A DNA stretch of 64,000 nucleotides from an uncultured Candidatus Berkelbacteria bacterium. Its GTDB lineage: Bacteria > Patescibacteriota > UBA1384 > UBA12157 > JAENIV01. Each line of letters starts with the position of its first letter. Position 1 is the stretch's first letter. The notes below the pieces were generated by a model. It saw only the letters and a list, made by a program, of their open reading frames with translations, was not told where the DNA came from and did no database searches. The translations under genes and the position numbers were made by a program. Shown here one piece after another: positions 1,312 through 41,505 of the stretch. The stretch is taken from contig OY969116.1 of NCBI GenBank assembly GCA_963698075.1, positions 862,131 to 926,130 on the forward strand. Direction: 5' to 3'.

Positions 1312-1968
1312 ATGGGCATATTGTATATTGTGGGTACCCCCATCGGCAATTTGGAAGATATTACTTTAAGGGCTTTACGAATTTTAAAAGAAGTTGATTT
1401 AATTGCCTGTGAGGATACTCGCCGGACAAGCATTTTGTTAGAGCATTATAATATCCGTCAGCCGATGGTTTCTTTTCATCAACATTCAAAACTGCAAAAA
1501 ATTGACTATCTTGTGGATAAACTAAAATCGGGCCAAAATATTGCTATAGTCACGGATGCCGGCACCCCCGGTATTTCTGATCCTGGTGGCGTCTTGATAG
1601 CCGAGGCGATAAAGCATAAGATAGAAATAGAGCCAATTCCCGGCCCGTCGGCTCTGACAACGATGTTGTCGATTGCTGGAATTGGAGCCGAGAAATTTTT
1701 GTTTTTAGGCTATTTTCCCAAGAAAAAAGGCCGCCAAACACTTTTGAAAAATTTAAAAAAATTTCCCTTTCTGATCGTCTTTTTTGAATCGCCGTACAGA
1801 ATTCAGCGGACCCTCGAAGATATCCAAAAATATTTAGATAATCCCGAAGTAATTATTGGCCGCGAATTAACCAAAAAATTCGAAGAAATTTTACGCGGAA
1901 AAATTTCCGAAGTTTTACCGAAAATCCGACCTCAAGGTGAATTCGTAATAATTATCAACCATGAATAA
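1312..1968 (+). CDS. rsmI: 16S rRNA (cytidine1402-2'-O)-methyltransferase, tetrapyrrole methylase fold
   Basis: N-terminus ILYIVGTPIGNLEDIT ... ACEDTRRT ... DAGTPGISDPG is typical of RsmI. Confidence 0.85.
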   Translation: MGILYIVGTPIGNLEDITLRALRILKEVDLIACEDTRRTSILLEHYNIRQPMVSFHQHSKLQKIDYLVDKLKSGQNIAIVTDAGTPGISDPGGVLIAEAIKHKIEIEPIPGPSALTTMLSIAGIGAEKFLFLGYFPKKKGRQTLLKNLKKFPFLIVFFESPYRIQRTLEDIQKYLDNPEVIIGRELTKKFEEILRGKISEVLPKIRPQGEFVIIINHE

Positions 1969-4224: not shown

Positions 4225-4247
4225 AATAAGATCTAAATAATACGAAA

Positions 4248-4285
4248 CAAGCCGCAGGCTCGAAAGCCTGCGGCTTGTATGTTGT
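4248..4285 (+). terminator. Rho-independent terminator after the membrane-protein gene
   Basis: GCCGCAGGC-TCGAAA-GCCTGCGGC hairpin followed by a T-rich run. Confidence 0.6.
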
Positions 4286-4306
4286 GTTCTCCACCTCCTT
4301 GTGGGG

Positions 4307-5632
4307 TTAGTGCGAAGGCCACTTCTCGCGGAATGGATCATCCGACTCCCGCGAGTAGAAGATGGCGATCAAGTGGCGCTGCCAGCCCATGAAGCCATCG
4401 GGCCAGAGGCGGACGTCCAGCCAATCCCCGGGCGGGACACGCATCGGCGGGTCAGCCCAGGGGTTTTCCCATACCCACATCTGCCAGGCATCGTGGATGT
4501 CAGTGCCAACGTTGTCCTTGCTCTGGCCGTTGAGTTCCCAGGAAGGCAGAGCCACCTTGAACTCCCGGGTCGGCAGGAAGGCTGGGGCGCGACTGCCATA
4601 GAAGCCCTCGCGGACCGTCAGGACAACCTCAGCTTTCGGATCGCGGGGAGACCTCTCGGCTTTGAAGACTTGGTATTCTCCTTGCCGAAGGTCCCAGGCC
4701 GAGTGAACGTAGTTCGGGCTGAATTTGGCCATGCCAGTGGTCAAGAGCCAAGCCGTCACCACCAGGCCGACTGCGAGATAGAAGCCGAAGGTCAGTCTCG
4801 CTATTTCCGGCTCGTTGTCCCAACCGCGCCGCAAGGGACCCTCGTGACTGACGCGAGCCAGCTCATAGCTCTTGATAAAGAGCGCCGAGCAGGCAAAGAC
4901 GAGCCAGTCGCGAGAGAGCAGAGAGTAGACCAGGGGCAGGGCCCAGTAGCGCTGTTCCATCAGTTCATAGAGGTGGCCGTGCCACTTAGGGTCGAGCTTC
5001 TTCTCCAAGATGTCTTCCGCCAGTCCGAGGACCAGGAGGACGACCAGAAAGGCGCCCGCCACGTTGAGCTCCAGGTTGATGGTCAGGAATGTCGGATTGG
5101 AGACGAAACTCTCGTGAAAGAACCTCGTCCCCACGAAGCTTCGGACCGCGAAGATGATCGGATCGGCCAAGAGAACCGCCAAAAGCATTACTGTCGTGGC
5201 CAAACCATGATTGGCGCGATCGATCTTTTCACGGACAAAGCAGACAAGGACCAAGGGAATCAGGAAATTGGCTAGGGGCGGGTGGGCGAGAATCAGGAGT
5301 GACCCCGCCAAACCCCAACCAATACCCAGGACCTTATCCGCTCCTCGAAACCAGACCAGACCGTGGTCGACGAGCAGGTCAGCCACCTTCATCTGGATAC
5401 CAAAGAAGATGGCCAGGGCTCCGACAAGGAGCTCTGTTGGGAGATACACCCCGGCGGCAACGATAGCGATGAGGCTAACCGTACCAGCCAGGGACACCAG
5501 GGCGGCAATATAGGTCAGACGACTGCGGGCCCAGGTGACGATTACAGGGACCCCGAGAACTCGGGGCATAGTCAGGCTTCTGACTGTCACAGCGTGCCTC
5601 CATATAGAGTCAAGGTTCAAATCGTCCCACAT
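4307..5632 (-). CDS. GC-rich (about 58%) polytopic membrane protein with a roughly 150-aa soluble C-terminal domain. Family not recognised.
   Basis: 441-aa ORF with coherent transmembrane-helix periodicity. A near-consensus promoter lies on the minus strand just upstream. Composition is foreign to the surrounding genome. Confidence 0.6.
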   Translation of the reverse strand: MWDDLNLDSIWRHAVTVRSLTMPRVLGVPVIVTWARSRLTYIAALVSLAGTVSLIAIVAAGVYLPTELLVGALAIFFGIQMKVADLLVDHGLVWFRGADKVLGIGWGLAGSLLILAHPPLANFLIPLVLVCFVREKIDRANHGLATTVMLLAVLLADPIIFAVRSFVGTRFFHESFVSNPTFLTINLELNVAGAFLVVLLVLGLAEDILEKKLDPKWHGHLYELMEQRYWALPLVYSLLSRDWLVFACSALFIKSYELARVSHEGPLRRGWDNEPEIARLTFGFYLAVGLVVTAWLLTTGMAKFSPNYVHSAWDLRQGEYQVFKAERSPRDPKAEVVLTVREGFYGSRAPAFLPTREFKVALPSWELNGQSKDNVGTDIHDAWQMWVWENPWADPPMRVPPGDWLDVRLWPDGFMGWQRHLIAIFYSRESDDPFREKWPSH

Positions 5633-5646
5633 CTTTGGGACATTGA

Positions 5647-5675
5647 ATTATAGCATAAATTGGTCTAAAAGTCAA
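5647..5675 (-). promoter_or_regulatory. Sigma70-like promoter for the minus-strand membrane-protein gene (TTGACT-17-TATAAT)
   Basis: The reverse complement reads TTGACTtttagaccaatttatgcTATAAT, about 15 nt before the ATG at 5632. Confidence 0.5.
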
Positions 5676-5773
5676 GGAATTATAATGCAGTTATAAGGAG
5701 GGATTTTGATAATATGTAAAGTTGACCTTTACTATGCTCAACACCCGCAAATCATAAAAATGTCAATACTCAC

Positions 5774-5809
5774 TTGACAAAATTGGTAAAATGTGATAAG
5801 ATGTGATAA
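5774..5809 (+). promoter_or_regulatory. Divergent sigma70-like promoter (TTGACA-17-TAAGAT) with tandem TGTGATAA repeats across the -10 element, followed by a roughly 75-nt hairpin-containing leader
   Basis: TTGACAaaattggtaaaatgtgaTAAGAT. TGTGATAA sits at 5792-5799 and 5802-5809. The leader hairpin is CAAGCG-GAAAT-CGCTTG. Confidence 0.45.
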
Positions 5810-5880
5810 TCAAGCGGAAATCGCTTGAGCGAACCTGAAAACCCGCCGGTGACGAGGTAAATCGGGAAAGGAGGTGGCCC

Positions 5881-6486
5881 ATGCGCTACCTGACAATAGC
5901 TGTACTGGTGGTAATGCTGTTGGGACTAGGGGTTTCTGCTTACGGGGCCCACGTTGAGGAGCCGGGGATCAACCTCGAGTCCATCAACATGGGTTACGAC
6001 CTCGAGCGGACCCCCGATGGCAACGAGACGACCGAGCTCTACGAGAACTTCTCGTTCTGCAACAAGACCTACCGAGTGAAGCTCTCTCTCGAGTACTACT
6101 CTGACGGCTATGACCGCTACACCCTCTACGCCGGCAAGAAGTCCAGCCCGACTATGGGACTGGTGCGCTGGGATGATTCGAGCCGCTTGTGGCTCGGCTT
6201 CAACCACGTCCAGCCCATCTCGAACGAGCTGACACTGATCCTCCGGCCGCTCAAAGGAGTCAATGCCGCCACCTGCGACCGCGCCTATCTCATCGCTGAC
6301 TACCAACTGAAGGGCGAACATCTGGGCGCGATGTTCCTGGCGGTGGGAATCGAGGGCGACGGCAAGGCCGAGGACTACTACCTTGGTCCCACTTACCGCG
6401 ATGGCGGCTGGAGCTTCTGGGCCGCCACACACCTGACCAAGGACGATTTCTACCTGGACGCCAGCTACTCAATGGCGTTCAAGTAG
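5881..6486 (+). CDS. Secreted protein (signal peptide MRYLTIAVLVVMLLGLGVSAYGA) with beta-rich composition resembling small outer-membrane proteins
   Basis: Signal peptide plus an AGGAGG RBS. GC-rich island gene. The beta-barrel-like assignment is inference only. Confidence 0.55.
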   Translation: MRYLTIAVLVVMLLGLGVSAYGAHVEEPGINLESINMGYDLERTPDGNETTELYENFSFCNKTYRVKLSLEYYSDGYDRYTLYAGKKSSPTMGLVRWDDSSRLWLGFNHVQPISNELTLILRPLKGVNAATCDRAYLIADYQLKGEHLGAMFLAVGIEGDGKAEDYYLGPTYRDGGWSFWAATHLTKDDFYLDASYSMAFK

Positions 6487-6510
6487 GGAACAACGACTAC
6501 TGACTAACCA

Positions 6511-6545
6511 GGCAGACAGGCCTTCAAACTTATGGCCTGTCTGCC
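6511..6545 (+). terminator. Perfect 12-bp stem terminator
   Basis: GGCAGACAGGCC-ttcaaacttat-GGCCTGTCTGCC followed by a T-containing tail. Confidence 0.6.
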
Positions 6546-6619
6546 CCATTTTCTCCTGATTCCATCCACGGATGGAGCCAGAAGACGAATGTTGTACCTG
6601 AACAAGGGAGGAAACCCTG

Positions 6620-6763
6620 ATGAACAAGAGATGGTTTCTTTTCGCCGTTATCGTCCTTGCCTGGATCGCTGTGGTTGTTCTGGGAGTCAAGTATGCCCCG
6701 TGGTCGTTTGCCGTCCTCGGCGGCGTCATCATTCTGCTCCTTATCTTGCGGAAGAGGAGGTGA
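6620..6763 (+). CDS. 47-aa hydrophobic membrane peptide (MNKRWFLFAVIVLAWIAVVVLGVKYAPWSFAVLGGVIILLLILRKRR)
   Basis: Below the ORF-track length cut-off. GGGAGG RBS 7 nt upstream. Its TGA stop is embedded in the RBS of the next gene. The overlapping long-frame ORF translates to low-complexity R/P/C-rich sequence. Confidence 0.5.
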   Translation: MNKRWFLFAVIVLAWIAVVVLGVKYAPWSFAVLGGVIILLLILRKRR

Positions 6764-6768
6764 GAGAG

Positions 6769-7413
6769 ATGATGAAGGTGCTTAGAGGCTCCTGCCTGGT
6801 TGCGAGTGGTGTGAAGGAGAAGGACGTATCCTCCTTCCTTCAGGAATGGGACCGGATAGGAGCGGAGCTGATTTCGGTAGAGAGGATCGGTATCAAGAAT
6901 CCTCGCTATCGAGTTCTCGCCTTCCTGCCCAATGGTCCGAATCATTCCTTTGCTTTGACCCACAGGTCTAAAGGCATTCACAATCTGGGTCAGGGCAAAC
7001 TGGTACGGAGCGAGACCGGAGCTGTCCGATTTGTGCCGGAGCGTTACCCCTACCCGGATGCCCAAGAAGTGGGTCGAGGTAGTAGCCGCGTAACCATGTA
7101 CACGGACCGGGACGGAAGGGTACACTTCAGCTTTCTGATACCCGGAACCCACTACCGGTGGCTGCACTGGATCGTTGATCCTCGCCGGATCGGTCCAAGG
7201 CAATTGCCATCAGGCTTTTTCCAATGGGACTTGGGTCTGCCCCAGCGCCGCCTGAGTTTACTAGCAAGTTTCGCGCTGGCGAAAGACACTGGGCGATGCC
7301 TGACACTCCACATGCAAGACCAGTACGGCAAGTTTCACGAACTTCCGGTCGAGAAGCGCGTGGCCAAGGTTCTTGGCCTTCGCGACTGTAACCCTCGAGA
7401 CGAGAGGAGGTGA
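6769..7413 (+). CDS. Hypothetical protein (214 aa) of the GC-rich island
   Basis: ATG preceded by GAGGAGGTGAGAGAG. Same frame as track ORF 6532..7413, but the region upstream of 6769 looks non-protein-like. Confidence 0.5.
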   Translation: MMKVLRGSCLVASGVKEKDVSSFLQEWDRIGAELISVERIGIKNPRYRVLAFLPNGPNHSFALTHRSKGIHNLGQGKLVRSETGAVRFVPERYPYPDAQEVGRGSSRVTMYTDRDGRVHFSFLIPGTHYRWLHWIVDPRRIGPRQLPSGFFQWDLGLPQRRLSLLASFALAKDTGRCLTLHMQDQYGKFHELPVEKRVAKVLGLRDCNPRDERR

Positions 7414-7418
7414 GAGAG

Positions 7419-8254
7419 ATGCCTGAAGAGCCCAAAGATGGCTATCTGATCATCATCAGAGATGTTCGGCACGGCGATTTCGTGGGACTGCTACCGCCTT
7501 TGTTCTGGCAGCCAACGGCGCGACTGTCCACTTGGTCTCCCGAAACGAAGAGAAGCTCGAGCAGATCGCCCACAACATCACCCATTTCCTTGAGGAGGTT
7601 AGGGAGGATCAAGTCGAACGATCAGCCGTTGATCTCCTTGATGAAGGGCAAGTCACGGCGTTCGTGGACGCCTTGCCGAAGAATAAACGGATCTTTTGGG
7701 TCCAGTCTATCGGCATGGGAGCCGGTACTTACCAACTCAAGGACGGAAACCCGTATCTGCATCTTGAGGATATCCCGCTCGAACTTCTTGAGCTGGAATC
7801 GACAACTGTGCTCAAGGGAACACACATCCTGATGCAGAAGCTACTGCCGGTGTTCCGTGAGCAAAACAGTCGCTTCGGAATGGAGACGAGGATTGCGATT
7901 GTAAGTTCGATGTCAGCAATCCGAGGCTATAACGTTGGCGGGACGCACTGCGCAGCCAAGGGCGCGATCAGCCGATATGCCAATGCGGCCATGCTCGACC
8001 TCTGGAAAGAAGGTATCTATGTTACCGATGTCAGGCCAGGGGTCGTCGACACCGGGATGTACGATTCGGAAGCGGTTCAGAAGGCAGTCCTGGAGATCGA
8101 CGCGGAATATGGCAATCACTGGAACCAGAATGGCCTTCAACTTGCTCCGCCCATCGCCGTCGGTTACGCCATCGCTACTGCGCTGACCATTCCCGCTCAC
8201 ATTCCGTCAATCAATCTGGTGGCGCAGGGGCAATTCCCGAACGAGGGGTCGTAA
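7419..8254 (+). pseudogene. SDR-family (short-chain dehydrogenase-like) gene that is frameshifted and degenerate
   Basis: The frame from 7419 encodes ...LIIIRDVRHGDFVG and then needs a -1 shift near 7486 to continue TATAFVLAANGATVHLVSRNEEKLEQ..., which aligns in register with the Rossmann region. The catalytic region reads SSMS...GGTHCAAK, with His in place of the Tyr of the YxxxK motif. Confidence 0.45.
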
Positions 8255-8278
8255 ATCTTAACAACTGAAAATAGATCT

Positions 8279-8317
8279 TGCCCACCATAGCCTTGGGCGA
8301 AGGTGGGCCTTTTCTCC
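8279..8317 (+). terminator. Terminator after the SDR-like gene
   Basis: GCCCACC-atagccttgggcgaa-GGTGGGC followed by CTTTTCTCC. Confidence 0.55.
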
Positions 8318-8377
8318 CGGTTATCACTACGGTGGTAGCTGGAAGCAAAAGAATGTACCTGAACAAAGGAGAAGCCA

Positions 8378-8572
8378 ATGTCGGCTTTTATGGGTGTGAA
8401 GACCAAAGACCGGAAGGGCAGGATCGTCGGGATCACACCGGATGTCGCCGCCGGTATGATATTTCTAGGGCTGGTAACGCCGGTCAGAAAGGTCGTTCAA
8501 CCAACACGCAAGAAGAAGGGGAAGGTTGCCTCGAAGCGCAAATCGGCGAAACGAAAAAAGAAGAGAGGCTGA
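8378..8572 (+). CDS. 64-aa protein with a strongly basic Lys/Arg-rich tail
   Basis: AAGGAGA RBS. Preceded by the same ATGTACCTGAACAAAGGAG module that precedes the 47-aa peptide gene. Confidence 0.45.
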   Translation: MSAFMGVKTKDRKGRIVGITPDVAAGMIFLGLVTPVRKVVQPTRKKKGKVASKRKSAKRKKKRG

Positions 8573-8573
8573 G

Positions 8574-8909
8574 ATGGCCAAGATTCTGCTCTGGAACGTG
8601 CCGGCGGAGTATCGCGAGGCGCTGGAGAAGGAAGCGAGACCGTTCGTGTCGCTGGAGACCCTAGAGATCGATGAAGTTTCTGGTATCAACCAATTTGATA
8701 GCAAAGCCAAAGAGGCGACTGCTTCAGGTAGGCCCTATACTCAGATTGTAGCTTTCTTGACAGAGCCATCCAATGTGAGAGGGGCGCTGGATGTACTCAG
8801 TGAGCGGGCGACAGAAATGCAGGCTGATGTAATCTGTCACACAGCGCTGGTTCCGCTTCCCGACTTCATCGCCGAGTTCAATCGCACCTTCCACCCGTGG
8901 AAGAAGTGA
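8574..8909 (+). CDS. Hypothetical protein (112 aa, MAKILLWNVPAEYREALEKE...)
   Basis: The ATG lies 1 nt after the upstream TGA, giving translational coupling. A terminator follows at 8938-8972. Confidence 0.5.
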   Translation: MAKILLWNVPAEYREALEKEARPFVSLETLEIDEVSGINQFDSKAKEATASGRPYTQIVAFLTEPSNVRGALDVLSERATEMQADVICHTALVPLPDFIAEFNRTFHPWKK

Positions 8910-8937
8910 CATCACATCATCAAGGAGAGGGATCAAT

Positions 8938-11696: not shown

Positions 11697-11730
11697 CAGC
11701 CGATTTGACCCCCGGCGATTTGGGGGGGGG
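11697..11730 (+). repeat. Copy 1 of the AGCCGATTTGAC-family motif (cagccgatttgacccccggcgatttggggggggg)
   Basis: Begins 4 nt after a TAG stop. Contains the hairpin CCCCC-ggcgattt-GGGGG. Confidence 0.6.
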
Positions 11731-11786
11731 CGTGGTCTGCCGGCGGCAATTGGCCCAGAATTTGGTTTCCTAAGCATTAAACAAAC

Positions 11787-11809
11787 GCCACCTGCGATAT
11801 GCGGGTGGC
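11787..11809 (-). terminator. Terminator for the minus-strand zinc-ribbon gene
   Basis: GCCACCTGC-gatat-GCGGGTGGC. Confidence 0.5.
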
Positions 11810-11834
11810 AAGACGAAATGAAAAGTTGGATCTT

Positions 11835-12227
11835 CTACAGGCTATGGGTGTGGGTTCTGACCGTGAAGTAATGGCAACGCGGACATTTGTGGTGGGTGAA
11901 ATGCCGGCCATAACCAGGTTCCTCAGCCACTTGTTCCATAGGAATAAGACATTTGGGACATAACGCAGCATTCGAATGATCTTCCAGAATGCCACACTCC
12001 AAACATCTAACCTGGAACCGGTGCGGACCCGACGGTACAAACAGAGGAGCGGTGATGAGCTTTTTTTCCTCATCAGACCATACCAACCAACCCAAGAATT
12101 CCCACCGATGTTCACAGACCATCGTCTCCTCAGCAACAGTCATCCAGGGTTCTCCCTTTTTCTTGTGGATATCAGTCCAATTAAATATTACTCCAAATCC
12201 AGATAAAATCAACTCAAAAGAGGCCAA
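11835..12227 (-). CDS. Small zinc-ribbon protein, GC-rich (three CxxC pairs: CLECG...CPKC...CPRC)
   Basis: 130-aa ORF with a TTG start; the alternative internal ATG gives 11835..12143. Cys spacing is typical of zinc ribbons. GC is about 50% against a 38% background. Confidence 0.45.
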   Translation of the reverse strand: MASFELILSGFGVIFNWTDIHKKKGEPWMTVAEETMVCEHRWEFLGWLVWSDEEKKLITAPLFVPSGPHRFQVRCLECGILEDHSNAALCPKCLIPMEQVAEEPGYGRHFTHHKCPRCHYFTVRTHTHSL

Positions 12228-12237
12228 TTTAAAAGCT

Positions 12238-12270
12238 ATTCTATTATTCTATAGAATATGCGAATATCAT
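12238..12270 (+). repeat. Palindromic element copy 1: ATTCTATTATTCTATAGAATATGCGAATATCAT
   Basis: Contains the perfect 14-bp palindrome TATTCTATAGAATA. An identical 28-nt core occurs at 23934. Confidence 0.7.
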
Positions 12271-13350: not shown

Positions 13351-13854
13351 ATGAAAAATTGGTTGTGGGTGACTTTAATTATTGCTCTTTTTCTCGTCGG
13401 TTTAGCTGGCGGCATCATTTATTGGTCTCTCGTTAAGACAAAAAATATCGCCAACTCCGCTTTAGACGCCGCTAAAAATGCCGAGAGTGTGACGACTCCC
13501 ACGCCTTCTCCTTCGATTTCTACAATACCGGTAGCACTGAATATGCCCTCTGCCGACGTTGCCGGCGAAGATCTCGCCGATGTCCCACGTTACAGCGGTT
13601 CGATGAGGACGGGCTACGATAAAAATGATGATGGCACCGAGATTAACCTCGAATACATTACCTCTTCCAGTACCAAAGAAATTCTCGATTTTTATAAAAA
13701 AACCCTGGTTGACAATGGTTGGACACTTTTTGCCGAAGGCTCCCAAAATTTAAATTTTTCGAAAAGTCAGACTGATGTCTCGATTGAAATCATTGAGGCA
13801 AACAACAATCTTATCCAATATCGTATTCATTCTTTTCGAACTCAAGGGGAATAA
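13351..13854 (+). CDS. Membrane-anchored hypothetical protein with a Ser/Pro/Thr linker
   Basis: N-terminal transmembrane helix followed by a soluble domain. Confidence 0.5.
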   Translation: MKNWLWVTLIIALFLVGLAGGIIYWSLVKTKNIANSALDAAKNAESVTTPTPSPSISTIPVALNMPSADVAGEDLADVPRYSGSMRTGYDKNDDGTEINLEYITSSSTKEILDFYKKTLVDNGWTLFAEGSQNLNFSKSQTDVSIEIIEANNNLIQYRIHSFRTQGE

Positions 13855-13917
13855 ATCTTTTTGCGGGACTTGACAAAACTCTATATATAATCTAATATAT
13901 ATTTAGAAAGGACGATT

Positions 13918-14112
13918 ATGAATAAAAATATTAATGTCTATAATTTACAGGCCAATATTTCCAAGGTTTTGAAAGAAACCGAAAAAGGCGCTGTTTATGA
14001 GGTAAATCGTTATTCAAAACCAGTGGCGGTTTTGATCTCTTACAAAAATTACCTCAAGCTCAAAGGCGAGTGCAAACATTGTATTGAAGATTTAAGGAAA
14101 TTGGTTAAATGA
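13918..14112 (+). CDS. Phd/YefM-like antitoxin-fold protein (64 aa)
   Basis: Matches the Phd/YefM N-terminal pattern NxSKVLxxxEKGxxxEVxRxSKPVAVLIS. Its stop overlaps the iscS start (ATGA). Confidence 0.5.
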   Translation: MNKNINVYNLQANISKVLKETEKGAVYEVNRYSKPVAVLISYKNYLKLKGECKHCIEDLRKLVK

Positions 14113-15290
14113 AAGTATATTTGGACTATGCGGCGACATCGCCGGACAAAAAAGAGGTGTTTCTGGCAATGACGCCATATTTTAAAGAATATTTTGGTAA
14201 CCCTTCGAGCATTCATGCCTGGGGACAGACGGCGCGGAAAGCCATCGATGAATCTAGGGCGACCATTGCTAAATTTTTAAATTGCCAGAGTGAAGAGATA
14301 ATTTTTACCGGCAGCGGCTCGGAGGCGGATAATTTGGCAATCACCGGGCTTATAGATGGCCTCGGGGTAAAAATTAAACCCCATATCATTACCAGCGCCT
14401 TCGAACATCATGCTGTTCTCAAAACCTGCGAGGATTTGAAGAAAAAAGGATTGGCTGAAGTGACCTACATTCGGCCAAATAAAGAGGGGATTATTGAAGC
14501 CGCTACAGTCAAAAAAGCCATCAAGCCAAATACGGTTTTGGTTTCGATTATGTATGTTAACAACGAAATCGGCACCATCCAGCCGATTCGCGAAATCGGC
14601 AAAATGATCGAGAAAAAGAATCACGACCGCCAGCAAAAGATTTATTTCCATACTGATGCCGTTCAAGCCGCCGAATATTTGCCAATGGACGTCGATTATT
14701 TACACGTTGATTTGCTTACCATCGCTGGTCACAAGATTGGCACGCCGAAAGGTGTTGGTTTGCTTTATATCCGCAAAGGCACGCCGCTTACTTCCATTAT
14801 TCATGGCGGCGAACAAGAAAAGGGCCTACGCGCCGGCACGGAAAATGTGCCATATATAATTGGTATGGCTACCGCCATCCAATTAATTAAAAATTTAAAA
14901 TTTAAAATTAAAAATTTAGAGAAACTAAGAGATTATTTTATCAAGCGCATCATAAAAGAAATTCCCGAAGTCTATCTCAATGGTTCTGAAACCCTCCGCG
15001 CCCCCCATATTGTTAATTTTTATTTTAAAAATATTGAAGGCGAATCGATTGTCTTGGGAATGGATCTGGAAGGGGTCGCTTGTTCAACCGGCTCGGCTTG
15101 CACTTCACAAAGCTTAGAGCCCTCCCACGTTATCATGGCAATTTTCAATGATCATTTCAGAGCCGCCGGTTCAGTGAGATTCTCTTTTTCAAAACTGACC
15201 ACCAAAAAAGATTTAGATTTTGCGATTACTAAACTTAAAAAAGTTGTCGCCCACTTAAGAAAAATTAGCCCATACGGAAAGAGAGGTTAA
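14109..15290 (+). CDS. iscS: Cysteine desulfurase (class V aminotransferase, IscS/NifS)
   Basis: PLP-lysine region (TIAGHKIGTPKG) and the catalytic Cys loop SSGSACTS. Confidence 0.9.
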   Translation: MKVYLDYAATSPDKKEVFLAMTPYFKEYFGNPSSIHAWGQTARKAIDESRATIAKFLNCQSEEIIFTGSGSEADNLAITGLIDGLGVKIKPHIITSAFEHHAVLKTCEDLKKKGLAEVTYIRPNKEGIIEAATVKKAIKPNTVLVSIMYVNNEIGTIQPIREIGKMIEKKNHDRQQKIYFHTDAVQAAEYLPMDVDYLHVDLLTIAGHKIGTPKGVGLLYIRKGTPLTSIIHGGEQEKGLRAGTENVPYIIGMATAIQLIKNLKFKIKNLEKLRDYFIKRIIKEIPEVYLNGSETLRAPHIVNFYFKNIEGESIVLGMDLEGVACSTGSACTSQSLEPSHVIMAIFNDHFRAAGSVRFSFSKLTTKKDLDFAITKLKKVVAHLRKISPYGKRG

Positions 15291-19954: not shown

Positions 19955-19978
19955 AACACCTCAACGGGGTGAGGTGTT
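19955..19978 (+). repeat. 24-nt hairpin element AACACCTCAACGGGGTGAGGTGTT (copy 1)
   Basis: A 9-bp stem that acts as an intergenic terminator. The reverse complement occurs at 23897. Confidence 0.6.
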
Positions 19979-19990
19979 AGGGAGGAGAAA

Positions 19991-20218
19991 ATGAAAAGAA
20001 TATTGATTATCTTGGGAATTATTATTTTGGCTGGCATGCTTTATTTTGCCGGTAAATATACTTACTATTATATTCAGGTTAAACAAATCAATACTTTTGA
20101 TGCTTGTGTCAAAGCCGGATATAAAATTACAATATATCCGAACGGAACAGACCCTTCGAAATGCACTTTGCCCGACGGCCGCGAACTTTTTGATAAAGTT
20201 TATGGGCCGGATAATTAA
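19991..20218 (+). CDS. Small membrane-anchored protein (75 aa)
   Basis: GGGAGGAG RBS and an N-terminal transmembrane helix. Confidence 0.45.
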   Translation: MKRILIILGIIILAGMLYFAGKYTYYYIQVKQINTFDACVKAGYKITIYPNGTDPSKCTLPDGRELFDKVYGPDN

Positions 20219-20324: not shown

Positions 20325-20819
20325 ATGAAGGTCGGGAAGATCATCTGGGATGTCGTGAAGGTCGTCTTGATGGTCGCTGTCGTGGTACTCGTTGTCTGGT
20401 TCTATCTTGGGGTACACCACAGCATGGTTGAGCAAGCTGCTTTCATGGCGAAAGCCAAGGCAAGCCAGACCATGATGCCTCGCGAACACATCTACATCGA
20501 TCCTCATCAGGTAGTGAAGATCCGCGAGATGCCGCTCGGTAGCCGTGGCTGGGCAATCGCTGAAGCGATTGTTGTTGGCAAAGGGGGTCGGTGTCTTCTT
20601 GACCTTGATGAATACGTAGAACTCAAGGTTAAGCCGGACCGCCCGGCGGTGGAACTCCGTTACCGAAAAGACGGCTTCTACGAGGCGACCGTTCTCGACA
20701 GTAGTATCAGTTGGGAACCGAAGGACGTAACCGGGTCCGAACATGAGAGCGATAGGAGCCTCTGCTATTTCCCACTCCGCGTCAGCTTCGCTGACAGCCA
20801 GAAGGCTGACGCGCGATGA
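20325..20819 (+). CDS. GC-rich (about 58%) membrane-anchored hypothetical protein
   Basis: AAGGAGG RBS and an N-terminal transmembrane helix. Bracketed by motif copies 3 and 4 and by the perfect palindromic terminator GGGCGGCGGCACGTGCCGCCGCCC (20838-20861). Confidence 0.5.
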   Translation: MKVGKIIWDVVKVVLMVAVVVLVVWFYLGVHHSMVEQAAFMAKAKASQTMMPREHIYIDPHQVVKIREMPLGSRGWAIAEAIVVGKGGRCLLDLDEYVELKVKPDRPAVELRYRKDGFYEATVLDSSISWEPKDVTGSEHESDRSLCYFPLRVSFADSQKADAR

Positions 20820-20916: not shown

Positions 20917-20957
20917 ATTAAATAATCCACGAGGGTAGGGCGTTTGCGAGGAGAAAA

Positions 20958-21506
20958 ATGAAGCAGGAAATTGATCAAATCAAACAAGGCCATACTGAAA
21001 TTCAAAAAGCGATAAAATATCTAGTTGATTCATGTTTGGATGAAAATGGGATATCGAAAATTGCTAATCCCAAGCCGGTTGTCCTGCATTCAATAAGAGT
21101 CGGGATGATTTTGTTAAATTACAATTATTCAAAAGAAATTGTAATAGCGGGGATCTTACATGACGTGATTGAGGATGCAGAAATTTCAAAAGAAAAAATC
21201 GCTGAAAAATTTGGGAATAAAATCGCGGCGATTGTTTGGGTGGTTTCGCACGATGCAAATATCGCCGATGACCAATTGAGAACAAAGACTTTGCACTCAA
21301 ATATGAAAGAAGCTGGAAAAGATACGGTGATTGTTTCCATCGCCGATCATATTGATAATTTTCCGTATTTAATATATGCCAAAGATGACGAAGAGCGCGA
21401 ATGGGTTCGTACAAAATGGCTTAAATTTTTCGATGAAGTTGCGTTATTGGCAAAAGACGAGCCAATTTATGAAGAGCTAAAAGAACAAATTGAGAAAATT
21501 AGATAG
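20958..21506 (+). CDS. Stand-alone HD-domain small alarmone ((p)ppGpp) hydrolase, RelA/SpoT N-terminal hydrolase-like
   Basis: HSIRVGMIL ... AGILHDVIED ... FG..IAAIV..VSH matches the RelA/SpoT HD hydrolase pattern. There is no synthetase domain. Confidence 0.6.
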   Translation: MKQEIDQIKQGHTEIQKAIKYLVDSCLDENGISKIANPKPVVLHSIRVGMILLNYNYSKEIVIAGILHDVIEDAEISKEKIAEKFGNKIAAIVWVVSHDANIADDQLRTKTLHSNMKEAGKDTVIVSIADHIDNFPYLIYAKDDEEREWVRTKWLKFFDEVALLAKDEPIYEELKEQIEKIR

Positions 21507-22956: not shown

Positions 22957-23048
22957 GAGTTAGACCAAAATTATTTAAATAGAAAAATCAAGAAAGCGCC
23001 AAAGAAATCCCAGGTGAGATAGACAATGTCATCTCACGGGATAAATAA

Positions 23049-23069
23049 CCGCACTCTGCCGGCGGCGGG
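23049..23069 (+). repeat. Left direct repeat of mini-island D (ccGCACTCTGCCGGCGGcggg)
   Basis: CGCACTCTGCC + GGCGG recurs at 23541-23560. The 12-mer TCTGCCGGCGGC also sits at the left edge of island B (11737-11748). Confidence 0.55.
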
Positions 23070-23126
23070 AGGTCTCGGTAAAAGCGAAGGGAGGAGACAA
23101 GCTCCTCCCATTTGGGCGGGCATCTT

Positions 23127-23477
23127 TCAGCCGCCTCGTTCTGCTCGGACTCTGGCCTGGGCTGCAACGTAGGCCTCCTCGTGGGCGCGGTACTCGGGGC
23201 TGTCGACTGGTATCCCGCGGGCCAACAGGTTCATCCCTTCTGACATCAGGCGAAGCTCTTCGGCCTCGGCCTCGGTCGGTGCCGCGTTCAGGCGGTTGAG
23301 CGGCGGGATTCGCGCCTTCTCGGCGTCCGAGAAGCCATCGACATTCACTTGTGGGATACTCGGGGTGCTGGATGCCGTTCCTGTGACGGCGTCGTGGCCA
23401 TAGCCACAGCTGAAGCAACGGTAGCGGCCATGGTCATCCTCGACAACCATCTCCTCTTTACAGCGAGGGCATTTCAT
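23127..23477 (-). CDS. Small zinc-ribbon protein, GC-rich (about 65%); MKCPRCKEEM...CFSCGY
   Basis: 116 aa, with two CxxC pairs at the N-terminus and an acidic/Ala-rich tail. Its own terminator hairpin is GGGAGGAG-acaagc-TCCTCCC at 23086-23110. Confidence 0.5.
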   Translation of the reverse strand: MKCPRCKEEMVVEDDHGRYRCFSCGYGHDAVTGTASSTPSIPQVNVDGFSDAEKARIPPLNRLNAAPTEAEAEELRLMSEGMNLLARGIPVDSPEYRAHEEAYVAAQARVRAERGG

Positions 23478-23540
23478 GGCAGTCCTTTCCTGAAGTCGGG
23501 ATCTAACTATATATTAATAGAAAAATTTTTTTAAACAAGC

Positions 23541-23560
23541 TCGCACTCTGCCAGGCGGAC
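23541..23560 (+). repeat. Right direct repeat of mini-island D (tCGCACTCTGCCaGGCGGac)
   Basis: See the left repeat. The two are 492 bp apart and enclose the terminator, the gene and the promoter region. Confidence 0.55.
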
Positions 23561-23577
23561 AGTGATATAATAAAAAT

Positions 23578-23898
23578 ATGATTTACATAATTATTGCTCT
23601 TATCGTTGGTTTTGGGCTCGGGTGGTTTTTGAAACCGAGAGAGAGCCGCCCCAGTGAGATACAAAAAAATCTCACGGGGCAAGGATTTATCAGCGAATCG
23701 GTGGAGAAGAAAGAGGAGAATTTAGCAAAAGCAAGAGTATACATTAAAGGCAAGGAAAAGATCACCAATGATGAGCTTCAAAAAGCCCTTGGCGTTTCCG
23801 ACGCAACAATTGTTAGATATTTAGACGAACTCGAAAAAGAAGGTCTCATTAAACAGGTCGGCAAAACCGGCAAGTATACTTACTACGAAGTTCTCTAA
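23578..23898 (+). CDS. Membrane-anchored winged-HTH protein (DeoR/MarR-like HTH at the C-terminus)
   Basis: N-terminal transmembrane helix. ITNDELQKALGVSDATIVRYLDELEKEGLIKQ is a classic wHTH. Confidence 0.55.
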   Translation: MIYIIIALIVGFGLGWFLKPRESRPSEIQKNLTGQGFISESVEKKEENLAKARVYIKGKEKITNDELQKALGVSDATIVRYLDELEKEGLIKQVGKTGKYTYYEVL

Positions 23899-23920: not shown

Positions 23921-23933
23921 AAATCTAGACGAT

Positions 23934-23966
23934 ATTCTATTATTCTATAGAATATGCGAATGTCAT
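23934..23966 (+). repeat. Palindromic element copy 2: ATTCTATTATTCTATAGAATATGCGAATGTCAT
   Basis: 28/28-nt identity with copy 1 at 12238, then one mismatch, then TCAT. Confidence 0.7.
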
Positions 23967-24110: not shown

Positions 24111-24563
24111 GTGGAAAGAACAATTGAGAGACCAAGACCAACAGGTCTTTGTGATCATCGAGAATTGTGCGGTCTTTGGAACGCTATTATGCATGTTCTT
24201 CATGAAGTCGCTGTTTACGAACCCGGCTGTGGTCAATGGCTCATTCCACTCACCATCAAAGGATTCTATTTAAGTACTTTGGGGGAGTTCTTCCATCAAG
24301 AATTTGACGAACCATTTGAGCAACTTACGCCCGATGAAATGGTCGAGCAAGTTCTTGAAGGCGTTAAGGATAATCTTCCTTCGACTGTTATCCGTTCAGT
24401 CATTGAAGCTATCCTTGAGGCCAGGAGGAAACGTGGGAAAGAGATTGATCCGTATGATGTGGCTCTGGGCGAAGTGGCAGTTGGGCTAGGCGTTTGGGCA
24501 AGACAACTTCTACCTGATTGGATTCACTATCGTGATTTGCTTCTGTCTCGGTCTCGGTTTTAG
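24111..24563 (+). CDS. Hypothetical protein (150 aa, GC about 46%)
   Basis: GTG start 7 nt after an AGGGGG RBS. A TTGACT-17-TAAATT promoter lies upstream. A terminator hairpin plus T-run lies at 24545-24590. Confidence 0.45.
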   Translation: MERTIERPRPTGLCDHRELCGLWNAIMHVLHEVAVYEPGCGQWLIPLTIKGFYLSTLGEFFHQEFDEPFEQLTPDEMVEQVLEGVKDNLPSTVIRSVIEAILEARRKRGKEIDPYDVALGEVAVGLGVWARQLLPDWIHYRDLLLSRSRF

Positions 24564-32727: not shown

Positions 32728-33561
32728 TTAGAAGTTGGAAGTGAAGTTAAGGGCTTTTGCCTTGACCAATCTTCTTAGGAGTTCGATTCTGGGCGTTAGA
32801 ATCGAGTCCAAATCAAGCTGTCGAGTTTGGAAGACAGGCAGTTCTTTCCTCCCGAATCTTTGTCTGGGAGTTATCTCGGTAACCTGATGAGGATCTTTGG
32901 TCACTCGTGGATCCCGGAGACCCTCCATGACCAGGATATCGACATATTGTCTCTGAGTGATACGAGCATCTAAGGTAACTGGTCGAATGATGGCGGAATA
33001 GATGTTGCGTACAATGACGAACTCTCTAAAGTATGCCAGTTTGCCTTGCTCTTGTAGGGCCTGAAACACTTTCCAGTAGTTTATCACTGATTGAATGTCC
33101 TTGATATTAGGAACAAAGAGCATTCTTCGATCTGTACCGAAAGTATCCAACAGGGGATCAGTTTCAGCAATAAACTCAGCGTGGACTTCATCCATTGGTT
33201 GAACTTCAAGGAGCTCGATCTCGCCGCTTGTCAGGAGAATTGGTTCGCCCTCGGCTGGTTCATAGACTTTGCCAAGCTCTTCTTTTGGTACAGCGATACC
33301 GCATGTTTGGCAGAAGAATCCCTGTTTAGCTTGTCCAACTTTTTTGATGACTGTTCTTCTGCGATCTGGTCTCTCGACTGCCACCCTCGTTTTGGGTTTC
33401 GTTGCCATTGGAAGGTCGAGACGTTGCTTGCATTTAATGTGAATAGGGGAGAGGGTTAACTCTTCAGGTTTTTCAGACTCGGCTGAGAAAAGTCTTCCCG
33501 AAACCACAAGATCTTGGAAAACGATCTTTCCCGTCCATTGTGCTCGTGTTCTGGCAGCCAC
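32728..33561 (-). CDS. ku: Ku-domain protein (NHEJ end-binding), GC about 50%
   Basis: N-terminus RAQWTGKIVFQDLVVSGRLFSA aligns with Ku IWKGSISFGLVNIPVKLYSA. CQTCG...GKVYEP...GEPILLTSGEIELL and FIAETDPLLDTFG...GKLAYFREFVIVRNIYSAIIRPV match the Ku core. Confidence 0.7.
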   Translation of the reverse strand: MAARTRAQWTGKIVFQDLVVSGRLFSAESEKPEELTLSPIHIKCKQRLDLPMATKPKTRVAVERPDRRRTVIKKVGQAKQGFFCQTCGIAVPKEELGKVYEPAEGEPILLTSGEIELLEVQPMDEVHAEFIAETDPLLDTFGTDRRMLFVPNIKDIQSVINYWKVFQALQEQGKLAYFREFVIVRNIYSAIIRPVTLDARITQRQYVDILVMEGLRDPRVTKDPHQVTEITPRQRFGRKELPVFQTRQLDLDSILTPRIELLRRLVKAKALNFTSNF

Positions 33562-40972: not shown

Positions 40973-41505
40973 GGCTGACCTCCGAGTTGGGATGCCACTG
41001 CCGCCCGGCAGTGGGTTCAGCAGCCGAAAGGCCTATCCCATAACATCGGAAGATCATAACAACATGCCTATATGGCATTTTATTTCGATTGAGGAACAAT
41101 TGGCCCATGTGACCTTGCTAATATTAGCATAAACCTTGTCAAAAGTCAAGCCAGGCAAAGTCCGCTTTCGGCGGACCGCCTGGCGCAGACCCGGCAGATG
41201 ACACACTGCAATAACAGGACGTAGTCCGTTTTGCAGTAAGGAATTGTGCGGGGTCAAGGTAATCAATCCATTGATTAAGATTGCGGAATATGCTAAGATT
41301 TCTTTGCGGCGGGAAGCCATATATTTTTTAGTCATTATATATTAGAATAGTATTAAGCAACCGCATAAAGTTATGGCGGGTGCGGCCCCATAAAATTGCT
41401 TTCTTTGCAACCTATTACACAGTGTAAGCAAAGAAGCGCAATTTACGGGGCTTCCTGAACTTTCTTTCTGCTTTCGCAGAAGCGAAATTCAGGAGTGGAA
41501 GGAAT

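Follow-up and report, generated by a model that had tools for sequence, protein, structure and literature searches.

What kind of element is a half-kilobase, GC-rich segment that holds a single gene between two short direct repeats, and how could it have reached its place in the chromosome of a bacterium of the Candidate Phyla Radiation (CPR, or Patescibacteria)? To our knowledge, these bacteria have tiny genomes with few recognizable mobile elements, and their routes of gene exchange are mostly unknown. The segment in question lies at 23049-23558 of a stretch of 64,000 nt from Candidatus Berkelbacteria contig OY969116.1, hereafter the window, in which position 1 is the first letter. We show that its repeats delimit a unit conserved in related lineages, that relatives without the unit keep a single repeat, and that the unit has moved between lineages. 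On balance, and with no great confidence, we lean towards a non-autonomous, horizontally exchanged single-gene cassette, moved by an enzyme that would act in trans and recombine it site-specifically at a palindrome.

Repeats that delimit a conserved unit

The exact 11-mer CGCACTCTGCC is found at 23050-23060 and 23542-23552 and nowhere else in the 64 kb; the site is thus not dispersed, both of its copies being at the cassette. Each copy is followed by GGCGG, at 23061-23065 on the left and, after one extra A, at 23554-23558 on the right. The two copies (table 1) stand at the edges of a segment of 61-63% GC in a genome of 43% GC, and a 100-nt sliding profile sets the island at 23008-23493, with 61% GC against 43% for the whole window. 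A preliminary description of this DNA had reported direct repeats at 23049-23069 and 23541-23560 enclosing a terminator hairpin, a 116-aa zinc-ribbon gene on the minus strand and its promoter region. The repeats stand, to within 1-2 nt, and all the enclosed features can be read in the sequence; the GC content given for the gene, 65%, is corrected to 63%. From the window alone the repeat is suggestive and only marginally significant: in Markov resampling an exact direct repeat of at least 11 nt at a spacing of 300-700 nt arose in 3.5% of simulated regions (P about 0.035), and two matches were reached in 6 of 100 shuffles. It is the conservation of the repeat at both cassette edges in relatives that shows it to be real. 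The site is an imperfect palindrome of 17-30 nt, with the core C(G/A)CACT(C/T)TGCC(A/G)G, two arms of about 7-9 nt around a centre of 5-7 nt; in its single form it folds into a small, imperfect hairpin that contains a bulged base (CCCGC-A-CT/CTGCC/AG-GCGGG, z -2.3 to -2.6), and the left copy of the window also folds as a bulged hairpin.

The repeats delimit a conserved unit. The cassette was found in at least five related CPR lineages, and it is bounded by the repeat wherever both ends are readable. Five further loci were recovered, L001, L002 and L003 from ENA, L005 from an NCBI metagenome, and L039 and L044 from JGI (equivalent to L003 and L002, respectively); in every one of these other loci the host DNA has about 42% GC and the cassette gene 61-62%. 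In an alignment of the window with L001, L002 and L003 (alignment A1), the promoter, Shine-Dalgarno sequence, open reading frame (ORF), hairpin and both repeats are conserved, and similarity begins and ends at the outer edges of the two repeats. The core CACT(C/T)TGCC(A/G)G appears exactly twice per complete cassette locus, and in L001 the two site copies match over about 30 nt. The repeats are reproduced at both ends in L001, L002 and L003 and on the terminator side in L005, L039 and L044, with only a decayed trace of the site on the promoter side of L005. Overall, the terminator-side copy is nearly invariant and the promoter-side copy evolves faster. The surroundings vary on both sides: the promoter-side neighbour is a winged helix-turn-helix (wHTH) regulator gene in the window and L002, a small transmembrane (TM) gene in L003, the mnmA side in L001 and a GNAT gene in L005, and on the terminator side lies a 379-aa ORF, a 112-aa ORF, an ACT_7 gene or a 23S_rRNA_IVP gene. 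L004, a distant homologue with 46% identity, lies outside any cassette of this type. Nor is the site a widespread repeat: the 20-mer of the left copy, CCGCCGCYGGCAGAGTGCGG, gave 16 matches in species-representative genomes and 22 in JGI metagenomes, and an 18-mer gave four in viral contigs, all of which, L039 and L044 excepted, are single matches in unrelated GC-rich DNA with no shared flanks.

Relatives that lack the cassette were located with the wHTH neighbour as anchor, and they supply the empty sites. A single site goes with absence of the cassette, two sites with its presence. In L052 and L053 one copy, CCGCACTCTGCCAGGCGGG(A/G), stands between the accessory-gene array and the wHTH gene, and this single site (C/ACCGCACTCTGCCAGGCGGGA) aligns base for base with the left copy of the cassette. 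It is followed in both by a 130-nt non-coding segment, here called X, whose wHTH-proximal end, TGCCGGGCGAAGTCTGGTATAAT, aligns with the right copy and promoter of L002 and the window. L055 has no cassette and carries a variant site, GTACTCTGACGGCGAAAG, directly upstream of the wHTH promoter; cassette and site are both absent from L026 and L027. The extended -10 element upstream of the wHTH gene (table 1) is itself kept, as TG(G/A)TATAAT in L052, L054 and L055, TGGTATAAC in L053 and TGGTAAAAT in L026.

An indirect sign comes from the ends of contigs. Four independently assembled contigs (L005, L039, L044 and L054) end within 15 nt of the site core: the break falls within the terminator-side copy at the end of L005 and within the promoter-side copy at the end of L039, and L044 begins 8 nt ahead of the terminator-side copy and L054 exactly at CGCACTCTGCC, with the wHTH gene following. 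Since a 20-nt repeat alone cannot break an assembly at k=141, these breaks suggest forks in the assembly graph, such as a point of recombination would produce, with alternative sequences on one side of the site, and hence heterogeneity in the population.

The cassette has moved between lineages. Between the window and L001, L002 and L003, the proportion of synonymous differences (pS) is 0.31-0.46 in the cassette gene, as opposed to 0.60-0.81, or saturation, in the core genes folD, cvpA, nifU, iscS and mnmA of the same genome pairs. Likewise, over the six pairs of four genomes, identity at third positions is 0.59-0.78 for the cassette and 0.37-0.51 for the core (folD, cvpA). The trees are incongruent as well: the core genes place the window nearest to L003 and farthest from L001, whereas the cassette places it nearest to L001 and joins L002 with L003. 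This low divergence, the incongruence and the foreign GC content together show horizontal exchange after the genomes had diverged, and they bear out the mobility that the preliminary description had proposed. The synonymous rate (dS) of the cassette spans 0.39-1.7. A neighbouring accessory gene, HD_4 (window 20958-21506, L003 1662-2210), has 94% nucleotide identity between the two loci, with a dS of 0.20, against about 70% identity and a dS of 1.2-1.75 for the flanking core genes of the same pair; by this comparison HD_4 has likewise been exchanged recently.

Mechanism of insertion and its alternatives

Other insertions in these loci also have a palindrome on both sides, which makes this layout a property of the region and not of the cassette alone. 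In L053 (290-975) a minus-strand PaaX_M gene just upstream of the wHTH gene has on both sides a 31-nt palindromic direct repeat, TTCCATAATAACACGATCG(CCT/TGG)TATTTGGGA; the close relative L052 (1160-1262) has this repeat once, in flanks that match the outer sides of the two L053 junctions. The PaaX_M site resembles an 11-6-11 arrangement, CCATAATAACA CGATCG TGGTATTTGG(G), and its three mismatches are adjacent, clustered as expected for differing attP and attB arms. A PaaX_M gene in homologous arrangement, with a related 35-nt repeat, is also present in L028 (7212-7880). In the window, a small TM gene (19991-20218) and a GC-rich island, island C (ORF 20325-20819), lie together between imperfect direct repeats of 25-40 nt, whose copies at 19967-19991 and 20933-20957 consist of the hairpin ACACCTCAACGGGGTGAGGTGT and a ribosome-binding site; L003 (2165-2265) has a single copy directly upstream of HD_4, an empty site. 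Finally, L026 has, within 6455-7205 and 13633-14307, two Y1_Tnp genes (IS200/RAYT-like, 224-230 aa), and the Y1_Tnp at 6489-7181, directly after folD, lies between identical 26-nt direct copies of the hairpin AAAGGACACCTCGTAGGTGTCCTTTT, which is related to the ACACCTCA...TGAGGTGT hairpins at 19956 and 23898 of the window.

For the cassette itself we favour the following course. A complete expression unit (promoter, Shine-Dalgarno sequence, gene and terminator) would have been inserted between folD and mnmA, inverted, by conservative recombination between a site borne on the cassette and the same site in the chromosome, leaving attL-like and attR-like direct copies; a further exchange between these copies would release the cassette and restore a single site. 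We infer that the reaction is site-specific and its enzyme acts in trans, a Xer-like tyrosine recombinase, or a Y1 HUH enzyme like those in the arrays of relatives, being the candidates. What makes site-specific recombination the most likely mechanism is the combination of palindromic sites, precise boundaries, single and double states, a repeat that stays constant across contexts, and the clustered mismatches of the PaaX_M site. The preliminary description, made from the window alone, had suggested either a tiny mobile cassette or an insertion that is site-specific and duplicates its target; the repeats of the other copies, the empty sites and the data on mobility now support that idea.

Several observations weigh against this reading. 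No recombinase, integrase or transposase was found among 46 ORFs of the window (Pfam; the scan of the window was not exhaustive), and no recombinase was called in L001-L003, L026 or L028. The dS values given above speak against a recent origin of the cassette copies; neither a circular nor an excised form was seen, and none of the empty sites is strictly isogenic. In L052 and L053 the slot is occupied by X, which implies either a deletion after insertion or that cassette and X are alternative fillings. The promoter-side site copy is degenerate and folds poorly, and in public collections the 20-mer of the left copy accompanies this cassette alone, so that there is no evidence of other cargo having been captured at the site.

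Could the same pattern arise with no dedicated enzyme, through short patches of homology? DNA of the form site-cassette-site would then replace site-X-site by a RecA-type double crossover or, in a variant, the cassette would circularize and re-enter by a single crossover at the 20-30 nt repeats. Segment X, bracketed in L052 and L053 by a full site and the partial TGCC(A/G)GGCG, does make cassette and X look like alternative fillings, and the lack of a recombinase in the ORF scan, the frequent local exchange to which HD_4 attests, and the pilin-like T2SSG protein of the window, which makes DNA uptake plausible, all point the same way. However, a double crossover cannot create a second site, and L055 has a single variant site and L052 a single copy of the PaaX_M repeat. 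The 17-30 nt of homology that the sites offer lies at or below the length with which RecA works efficiently. Moreover, the three adjacent PaaX_M mismatches fit pre-existing differences between attP and attB arms better than later decay, and all three types of repeat are palindromic, a feature for which homologous recombination has no need. We therefore judge exchange by homology unlikely, though a contender to be taken seriously.

Transfer as single-stranded DNA, in which a Y1 HUH transposase of the IS200/IS605 or RAYT kind would set a hairpin-bounded unit, kin to palindrome-associated elements but with a passenger gene, beside a resident hairpin, seems to us improbable. The array of L026 does carry two Y1_Tnp genes, one of them in the same layout of a gene between two hairpins; of the related hairpins in the window, one is the duplicated site of the TM and island C insertion, and the single form of the cassette site is itself an imperfect hairpin with a bulged base. 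Yet the cassette hairpin is unrelated in sequence to that flanking Y1_Tnp, the promoter-side copy folds poorly, no conserved tetranucleotide adjoins the repeat copies, no Y1_Tnp is among the 46 window ORFs scanned, and a classical IS200/IS605 insertion leaves no hairpin at empty sites, though those of L052 and L053 hold one. That the unit does not move at all, being a vertically inherited gene whose conservation and GC content reflect selection and whose repeats are duplicated regulatory or promoter modules, such as an operator for the wHTH regulator, is very improbable. In its favour, the site has the palindromic form usual in operators, and the right copy lies against the wHTH extended -10, with a right half, GGCG(G/A)AGTCTG-TATAAT, that is met again upstream of other genes; but the cassette tree conflicts with that of the core, its synonymous divergence is 2-5 times lower, the neighbours differ on both sides with similarity ending exactly at the repeats, the cassette is missing from close relatives that keep one site, L001, L003 and L005 have no adjacent wHTH gene, and the left copy follows a terminator and faces a convergent gene. 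As for a chance match or an assembly chimera, the 3.5% of simulations with an 11-mer repeat this close would allow the former, but the same structure, with repeats at both ends, was assembled independently from different samples in ENA, NCBI and JGI data, and this explanation is effectively refuted. Site-specific recombination with an enzyme in trans remains the reading we prefer.

The cassette gene and the folD-mnmA region

The signals of the cassette are gathered in table 1; the whole unit is inverted relative to the neighbouring accessory genes.

Table 1. Features of the cassette and of its right-hand border in the window
Feature	Position	Strand	Remarks
Left (terminator-side) site copy, CCGCACTCTGCCGGCGGCGGGAGGTCT	23049..23075	+	attL-like junction; better conserved copy
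Intrinsic terminator, 8-bp G+C-rich stem (23089-23109, GGGAGGAGCTTGTCTCCTCCC) followed by a T-tract	23079..23109	-	sequence
Cargo gene, 116 aa, N-terminal CxxC...CxxC zinc ribbon and C-terminal helical hairpin, 63% GC	23127..23477	-	
Shine-Dalgarno sequence, GGAAAGGA, 6 nt upstream of the ATG	23483..23490	-	read from sequence
AT-rich sigma-70-like promoter, TTTAAA, 18 nt, TATAGT	23506..23535	-	predicted from sequence
Right (promoter-side) site copy, TCGCACTCTGCCAGGCGG	23541..23558	+	attR-like junction; abuts the wHTH promoter
Extended -10, TGATATAAT, of the wHTH regulator gene (23578-23898)	23563..23571	+	outside the cassette, on the chromosomal side of the right junction

Gene and terminator are under selection. 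Pairwise dN/dS of the 116-aa frame is 0.10-0.21 among five orthologues, and the terminator stem shows compensatory changes, with an A:T pair in the window where L002, L003 and L005 have G:C and an extra A:T pair in L001; both argue that the gene is real. The promoter region is near-identical across the window, L001, L002 and L003, and is also present in L005, and the Shine-Dalgarno sequence is almost invariant among the four aligned copies (GGGAAAGG in L001, AGGAAAGG in the others). The cargo protein begins MKCPRC...CFSC. Its AlphaFold2 model (pLDDT 87) has a four-stranded zinc ribbon followed by two long helices, and no PDB match to the model reached an E of 0.001 or better. Pfam gave sub-threshold zinc-ribbon matches and none at the curated cutoff, NCBIfam gave weak generic zinc-ribbon matches below threshold, and the sole match in PHROGs is weak, covers 25 residues and belongs to a family of unknown function; as no relative was found in viral contigs either, an origin of the cargo in phages was rejected. 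Close relatives are few, six among 5.8 billion sequences; an identical protein is encoded on a contig of 929 kb. An exhaustive profile search widened the family to about 65 cluster representatives, all of 56-165 aa except for five multi-stretch matches to much longer proteins; in most members an additional SYWDxTD segment is present at the N-terminus, along with the motifs DDHGRF, IPQV(D) and IPPINRL, and every member whose source is named comes from Patescibacteria. Nothing suggests that the protein is a recombinase, and it would rather be a small factor that binds nucleic acid or protein.

The gene order of the window (Pfam, 46 ORFs) is iscS, nifU, cvpA, folD, a run of small accessory genes, mnmA, ctpA and rplI. 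Between folD and mnmA the window has ORF6N, HIT, GNAT, Peptidase_S51, HD_4 and several genes of no known family; relatives keep folD and mnmA as anchors and differ between them (NUDIX, His_Phos_1, Creatininase, Lactamase_B, PaaX_M, Y1_Tnp, ACT_7 and others), so the cassette sits in a hypervariable region. The named homologues of the wHTH regulator are all from Patescibacteria or Berkelbacteria. ARAGORN and Rfam found no rRNA, tRNA, tmRNA or other Rfam family in the window, and for the same reason the GC-rich islands were rejected as rRNA; L052 and L053 gave no credible Rfam match.

The accessory array has a motif of its own. A 26-nt sequence, (T)AGCCGATTTGAC[A/C][C/G]C[C/G]GG.GATTA, is found 3' of the stop codon of almost all accessory genes on the same strand in the folD-mnmA interval; often its TAG serves as that stop codon. 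On the plus strand of the window it lies at 11698, 18520, 20223, 20895 and 21505, and island C is also between two of its copies; in relatives it was seen in L028 (4127, 5158, 5731 and 6127), L026 (7955), L003 (about 1632-1666, minus strand), L052 (1065-1098) and L053 (79-120). A 10-kb part of the window holds five exact 12-mer cores, and the remaining 54 kb hold none. For a promoter, the motif lies at too short a distance from the next start codon. The layout of an ORF with the motif 3' of it resembles integron cassettes; no integrase was seen. That the cassette site is a variant of this array motif (AGCCGATTTGAC) was considered and is not supported: the core TYTGMCRGCGG has 4 matches against 0.31 expected, yet a sequence model based on 12 copies of the motif finds every known copy (E <= 3e-5) and no cassette site at E up to 10, and the pairwise similarity of site and motif is no better than that of shuffles. 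Scans of viral contigs with the single-site form and with the array motif returned chance matches only.

Two further islands of high GC precede the cassette. Island A (4243-8936) spans 4.7 kb at 55-59% GC and has five or six ORFs, one of which encodes a short-chain dehydrogenase; those of 441, 201, 293 and 128 aa have no Pfam match, the island has no Rfam match and is not rRNA, and it is probably a larger horizontally acquired block. Island B (11700-12240) has a single minus-strand gene, a cysteine-rich ORF of 130 aa (CLECG, CPKC, CPRC) with no match in Pfam, PHROG or NCBIfam, and a terminator hairpin of its own (11789-11811); at the left edge of the island are the 26-nt motif, a G-run and the 12-mer TCTGCCGGCGGC. 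This 12-mer is indeed, as the preliminary description had pointed out, common to the left repeat of the cassette and to island B, where it is at 11736-11747; but there is no second copy at the other edge, and island B as a sister cassette was set aside, the link being unproven.

Other repeated elements lie around the wHTH gene. Palindromes of the form CCCAGGTGAGAT...ATCTCACGGG, at 23010-23041 and 23650-23680, bracket the cassette together with the start of the wHTH gene; the pattern has 2 matches against 0.00 expected and none in 54 other loci. The second copy falls within the coding sequence of the wHTH gene, in a linker, RESRPSEIQKNLTGQ, that is missing from relatives; a palindromic element may have been inserted here in frame. 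A promoter-like motif of about 28 nt, TTCTATTATTCTATAGAATATGCGAAT, which contains the perfect palindrome TATTCTATAGAATA, appears twice in the window, beside island B (12237-12266) and after the wHTH gene (23933-23962), ahead of a 150-aa ORF; it is also found upstream of mnmA in L026 (about 8358) and L053 (about 1345). The 150-aa ORF (24111-24563), of no family match, lies between the wHTH terminator/promoter motif and mnmA, and is probably an insertion specific to the window, since in L026 and L053 mnmA follows the motif directly. Farther along, a minus-strand ORF of 277 aa (32728-33561) has a weak match to the Ku70/Ku80 beta-barrel (23.6 bits, cutoff 25); if the match is real, this small genome would have an end-joining factor. 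Lastly, a 76-nt stretch at 41184-41258, at the edge of a mildly GC-rich segment (40.6-41.3 kb), is 91% identical to a non-syntenic stretch of L001 (8571-8646) and may be another short conserved or mobile non-coding element.

Known elements and the meaning of the cassette

The preliminary description knew of no element family of this form, and that judgement holds: the cassette lacks what defines integron cassettes, miniature inverted-repeat transposable elements (MITEs) and tRNA-targeting islands, and no description of such elements in CPR was found in the literature. Integron cassettes share with it the single-gene unit, the setting in a hypervariable array of small accessory genes (GNAT, NUDIX, HIT, Lactamase_B and similar), the short structured site that ends each unit of the array, and a recombination site that folds as an imperfect hairpin. 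However, attC sites have an R''-L''...L'-R' architecture of 57-141 bp with a GTTRRRY core, and the repeat here, CCGCACTCTGCC(A/G)G..., of 17-30 nt, lacks GTTRRRY and RYYYAAC cores as well as any long imperfect inverted repeat; neither an intI gene (same ORF scan) nor an attI site was found in the window. Integron cassettes are, moreover, promoterless and oriented with their array, whereas this unit has its own promoter and terminator, is inverted and has the same site on both sides. With no attC, no IntI found and a promoter of its own, it was rejected as an integron cassette. No inverted repeat pairs the two cassette ends; a MITE or other element derived from an insertion sequence (IS) was rejected on that ground and because the flanking repeats measure 17-30 nt, not the 2-15 bp of a target duplication, and stay the same from one genomic context to another. 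An island of the integrase or tycheposon-like type that targets tRNA or tmRNA, whose repeats would derive from the 3' end of such a gene, was rejected in the absence of any such gene, or any Rfam family, from the window.

Phage morons are reportedly autonomous promoter-gene-terminator units of deviant composition, and the cassette resembles them as such a unit between unrelated genes. It is not in a prophage, its surroundings being chromosomal accessory and housekeeping genes, and it has no viral relatives among those searched; flanking direct repeats and empty sites with one repeat, in turn, are no part of what defines a moron. Without a prophage around it, the cassette was rejected as a moron. 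Derivatives of IS200/IS605 and systems of repetitive extragenic palindromes (REP) and their associated tyrosine transposases (RAYT) are said to have hairpins in the same orientation at both ends. The cassette has same-orientation imperfect palindromes at both ends and no terminal inverted repeats, and the Y1_Tnp of relatives shows that layout; unlike IS200/IS605, its empty sites keep one hairpin, which is compatible with insertion beside a resident REP, and its site lacks a conserved cleavage tetranucleotide, is not dispersed and has a hairpin unrelated to that of Y1_Tnp. Cis-mobilizable elements (CIMEs) are att-flanked remnants of integrative elements. Like them, the cassette is a non-autonomous segment between attL- and attR-like direct repeats that would take its recombinase from another element; CIMEs are kilobases long, derive from integrative and conjugative or integrative and mobilizable elements (ICE or IME) and usually lie at tRNA genes or the ends of conserved genes, whereas the cassette is only 0.5 kb, has no known parent element and targets an intergenic palindrome.

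Xer-dependent dif modules, known from Acinetobacter plasmids, and IMEX are small, often single-gene units without a recombinase of their own, shuffled between replicons at short palindromic sites by a housekeeping tyrosine recombinase in trans; the modules have 28-bp XerC/XerD sites (11-6-11) in alternating orientation (PMC6449649, PMC13141974, PMC12907356). The cassette is like them in being a small single-gene unit between short palindromic sites with no recombinase of its own. It differs from dif modules, which are on plasmids, in its place on a CPR chromosome and in its sites, which are direct, of about 17-30 nt with arms of 7-9 nt, and for which no similarity to known dif sites could be established. 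In its working the cassette would come closest to dif modules, IMEX and CIMEs, its anatomy being moron-like and its setting like that of an integron array. We regard the cassette as a non-autonomous unit bounded by recombination sites, unusual in its tiny size, in being a complete expression unit and in residing on a CPR chromosome.

At least three families of sites flank inserts in this region: the cassette site, the 31-nt PaaX_M site and the ACACCTCA hairpin. It is conceivable, if rather doubtful, that the whole folD-mnmA region is a cassette-capture platform of a new kind, in which single genes are gained and lost at short palindromes of diverse sequence, which come to lie on either side of every insert, by one enzyme that recognizes their structure; this enzyme would be neither IntI nor a known cassette integrase, and perhaps Xer-like or a Y1 HUH enzyme. 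If true, such a platform would be an integron analogue in ultra-small bacteria.

Overall, the cassette provides a concrete case of one gene, in a unit of 0.5 kb, that has passed between lineages in whose core genes synonymous sites are saturated, and its cargo defines a small zinc-ribbon family, under purifying selection, whose source-named members all come from Patescibacteria. With filled and empty states both observed, and the junction site precisely defined, it gives a testable handle on the gain of accessory genes in these organisms. If the same logic holds for the other insertions between folD and mnmA, the region would illustrate an integron-like, mechanistically distinct way of building gene arrays.

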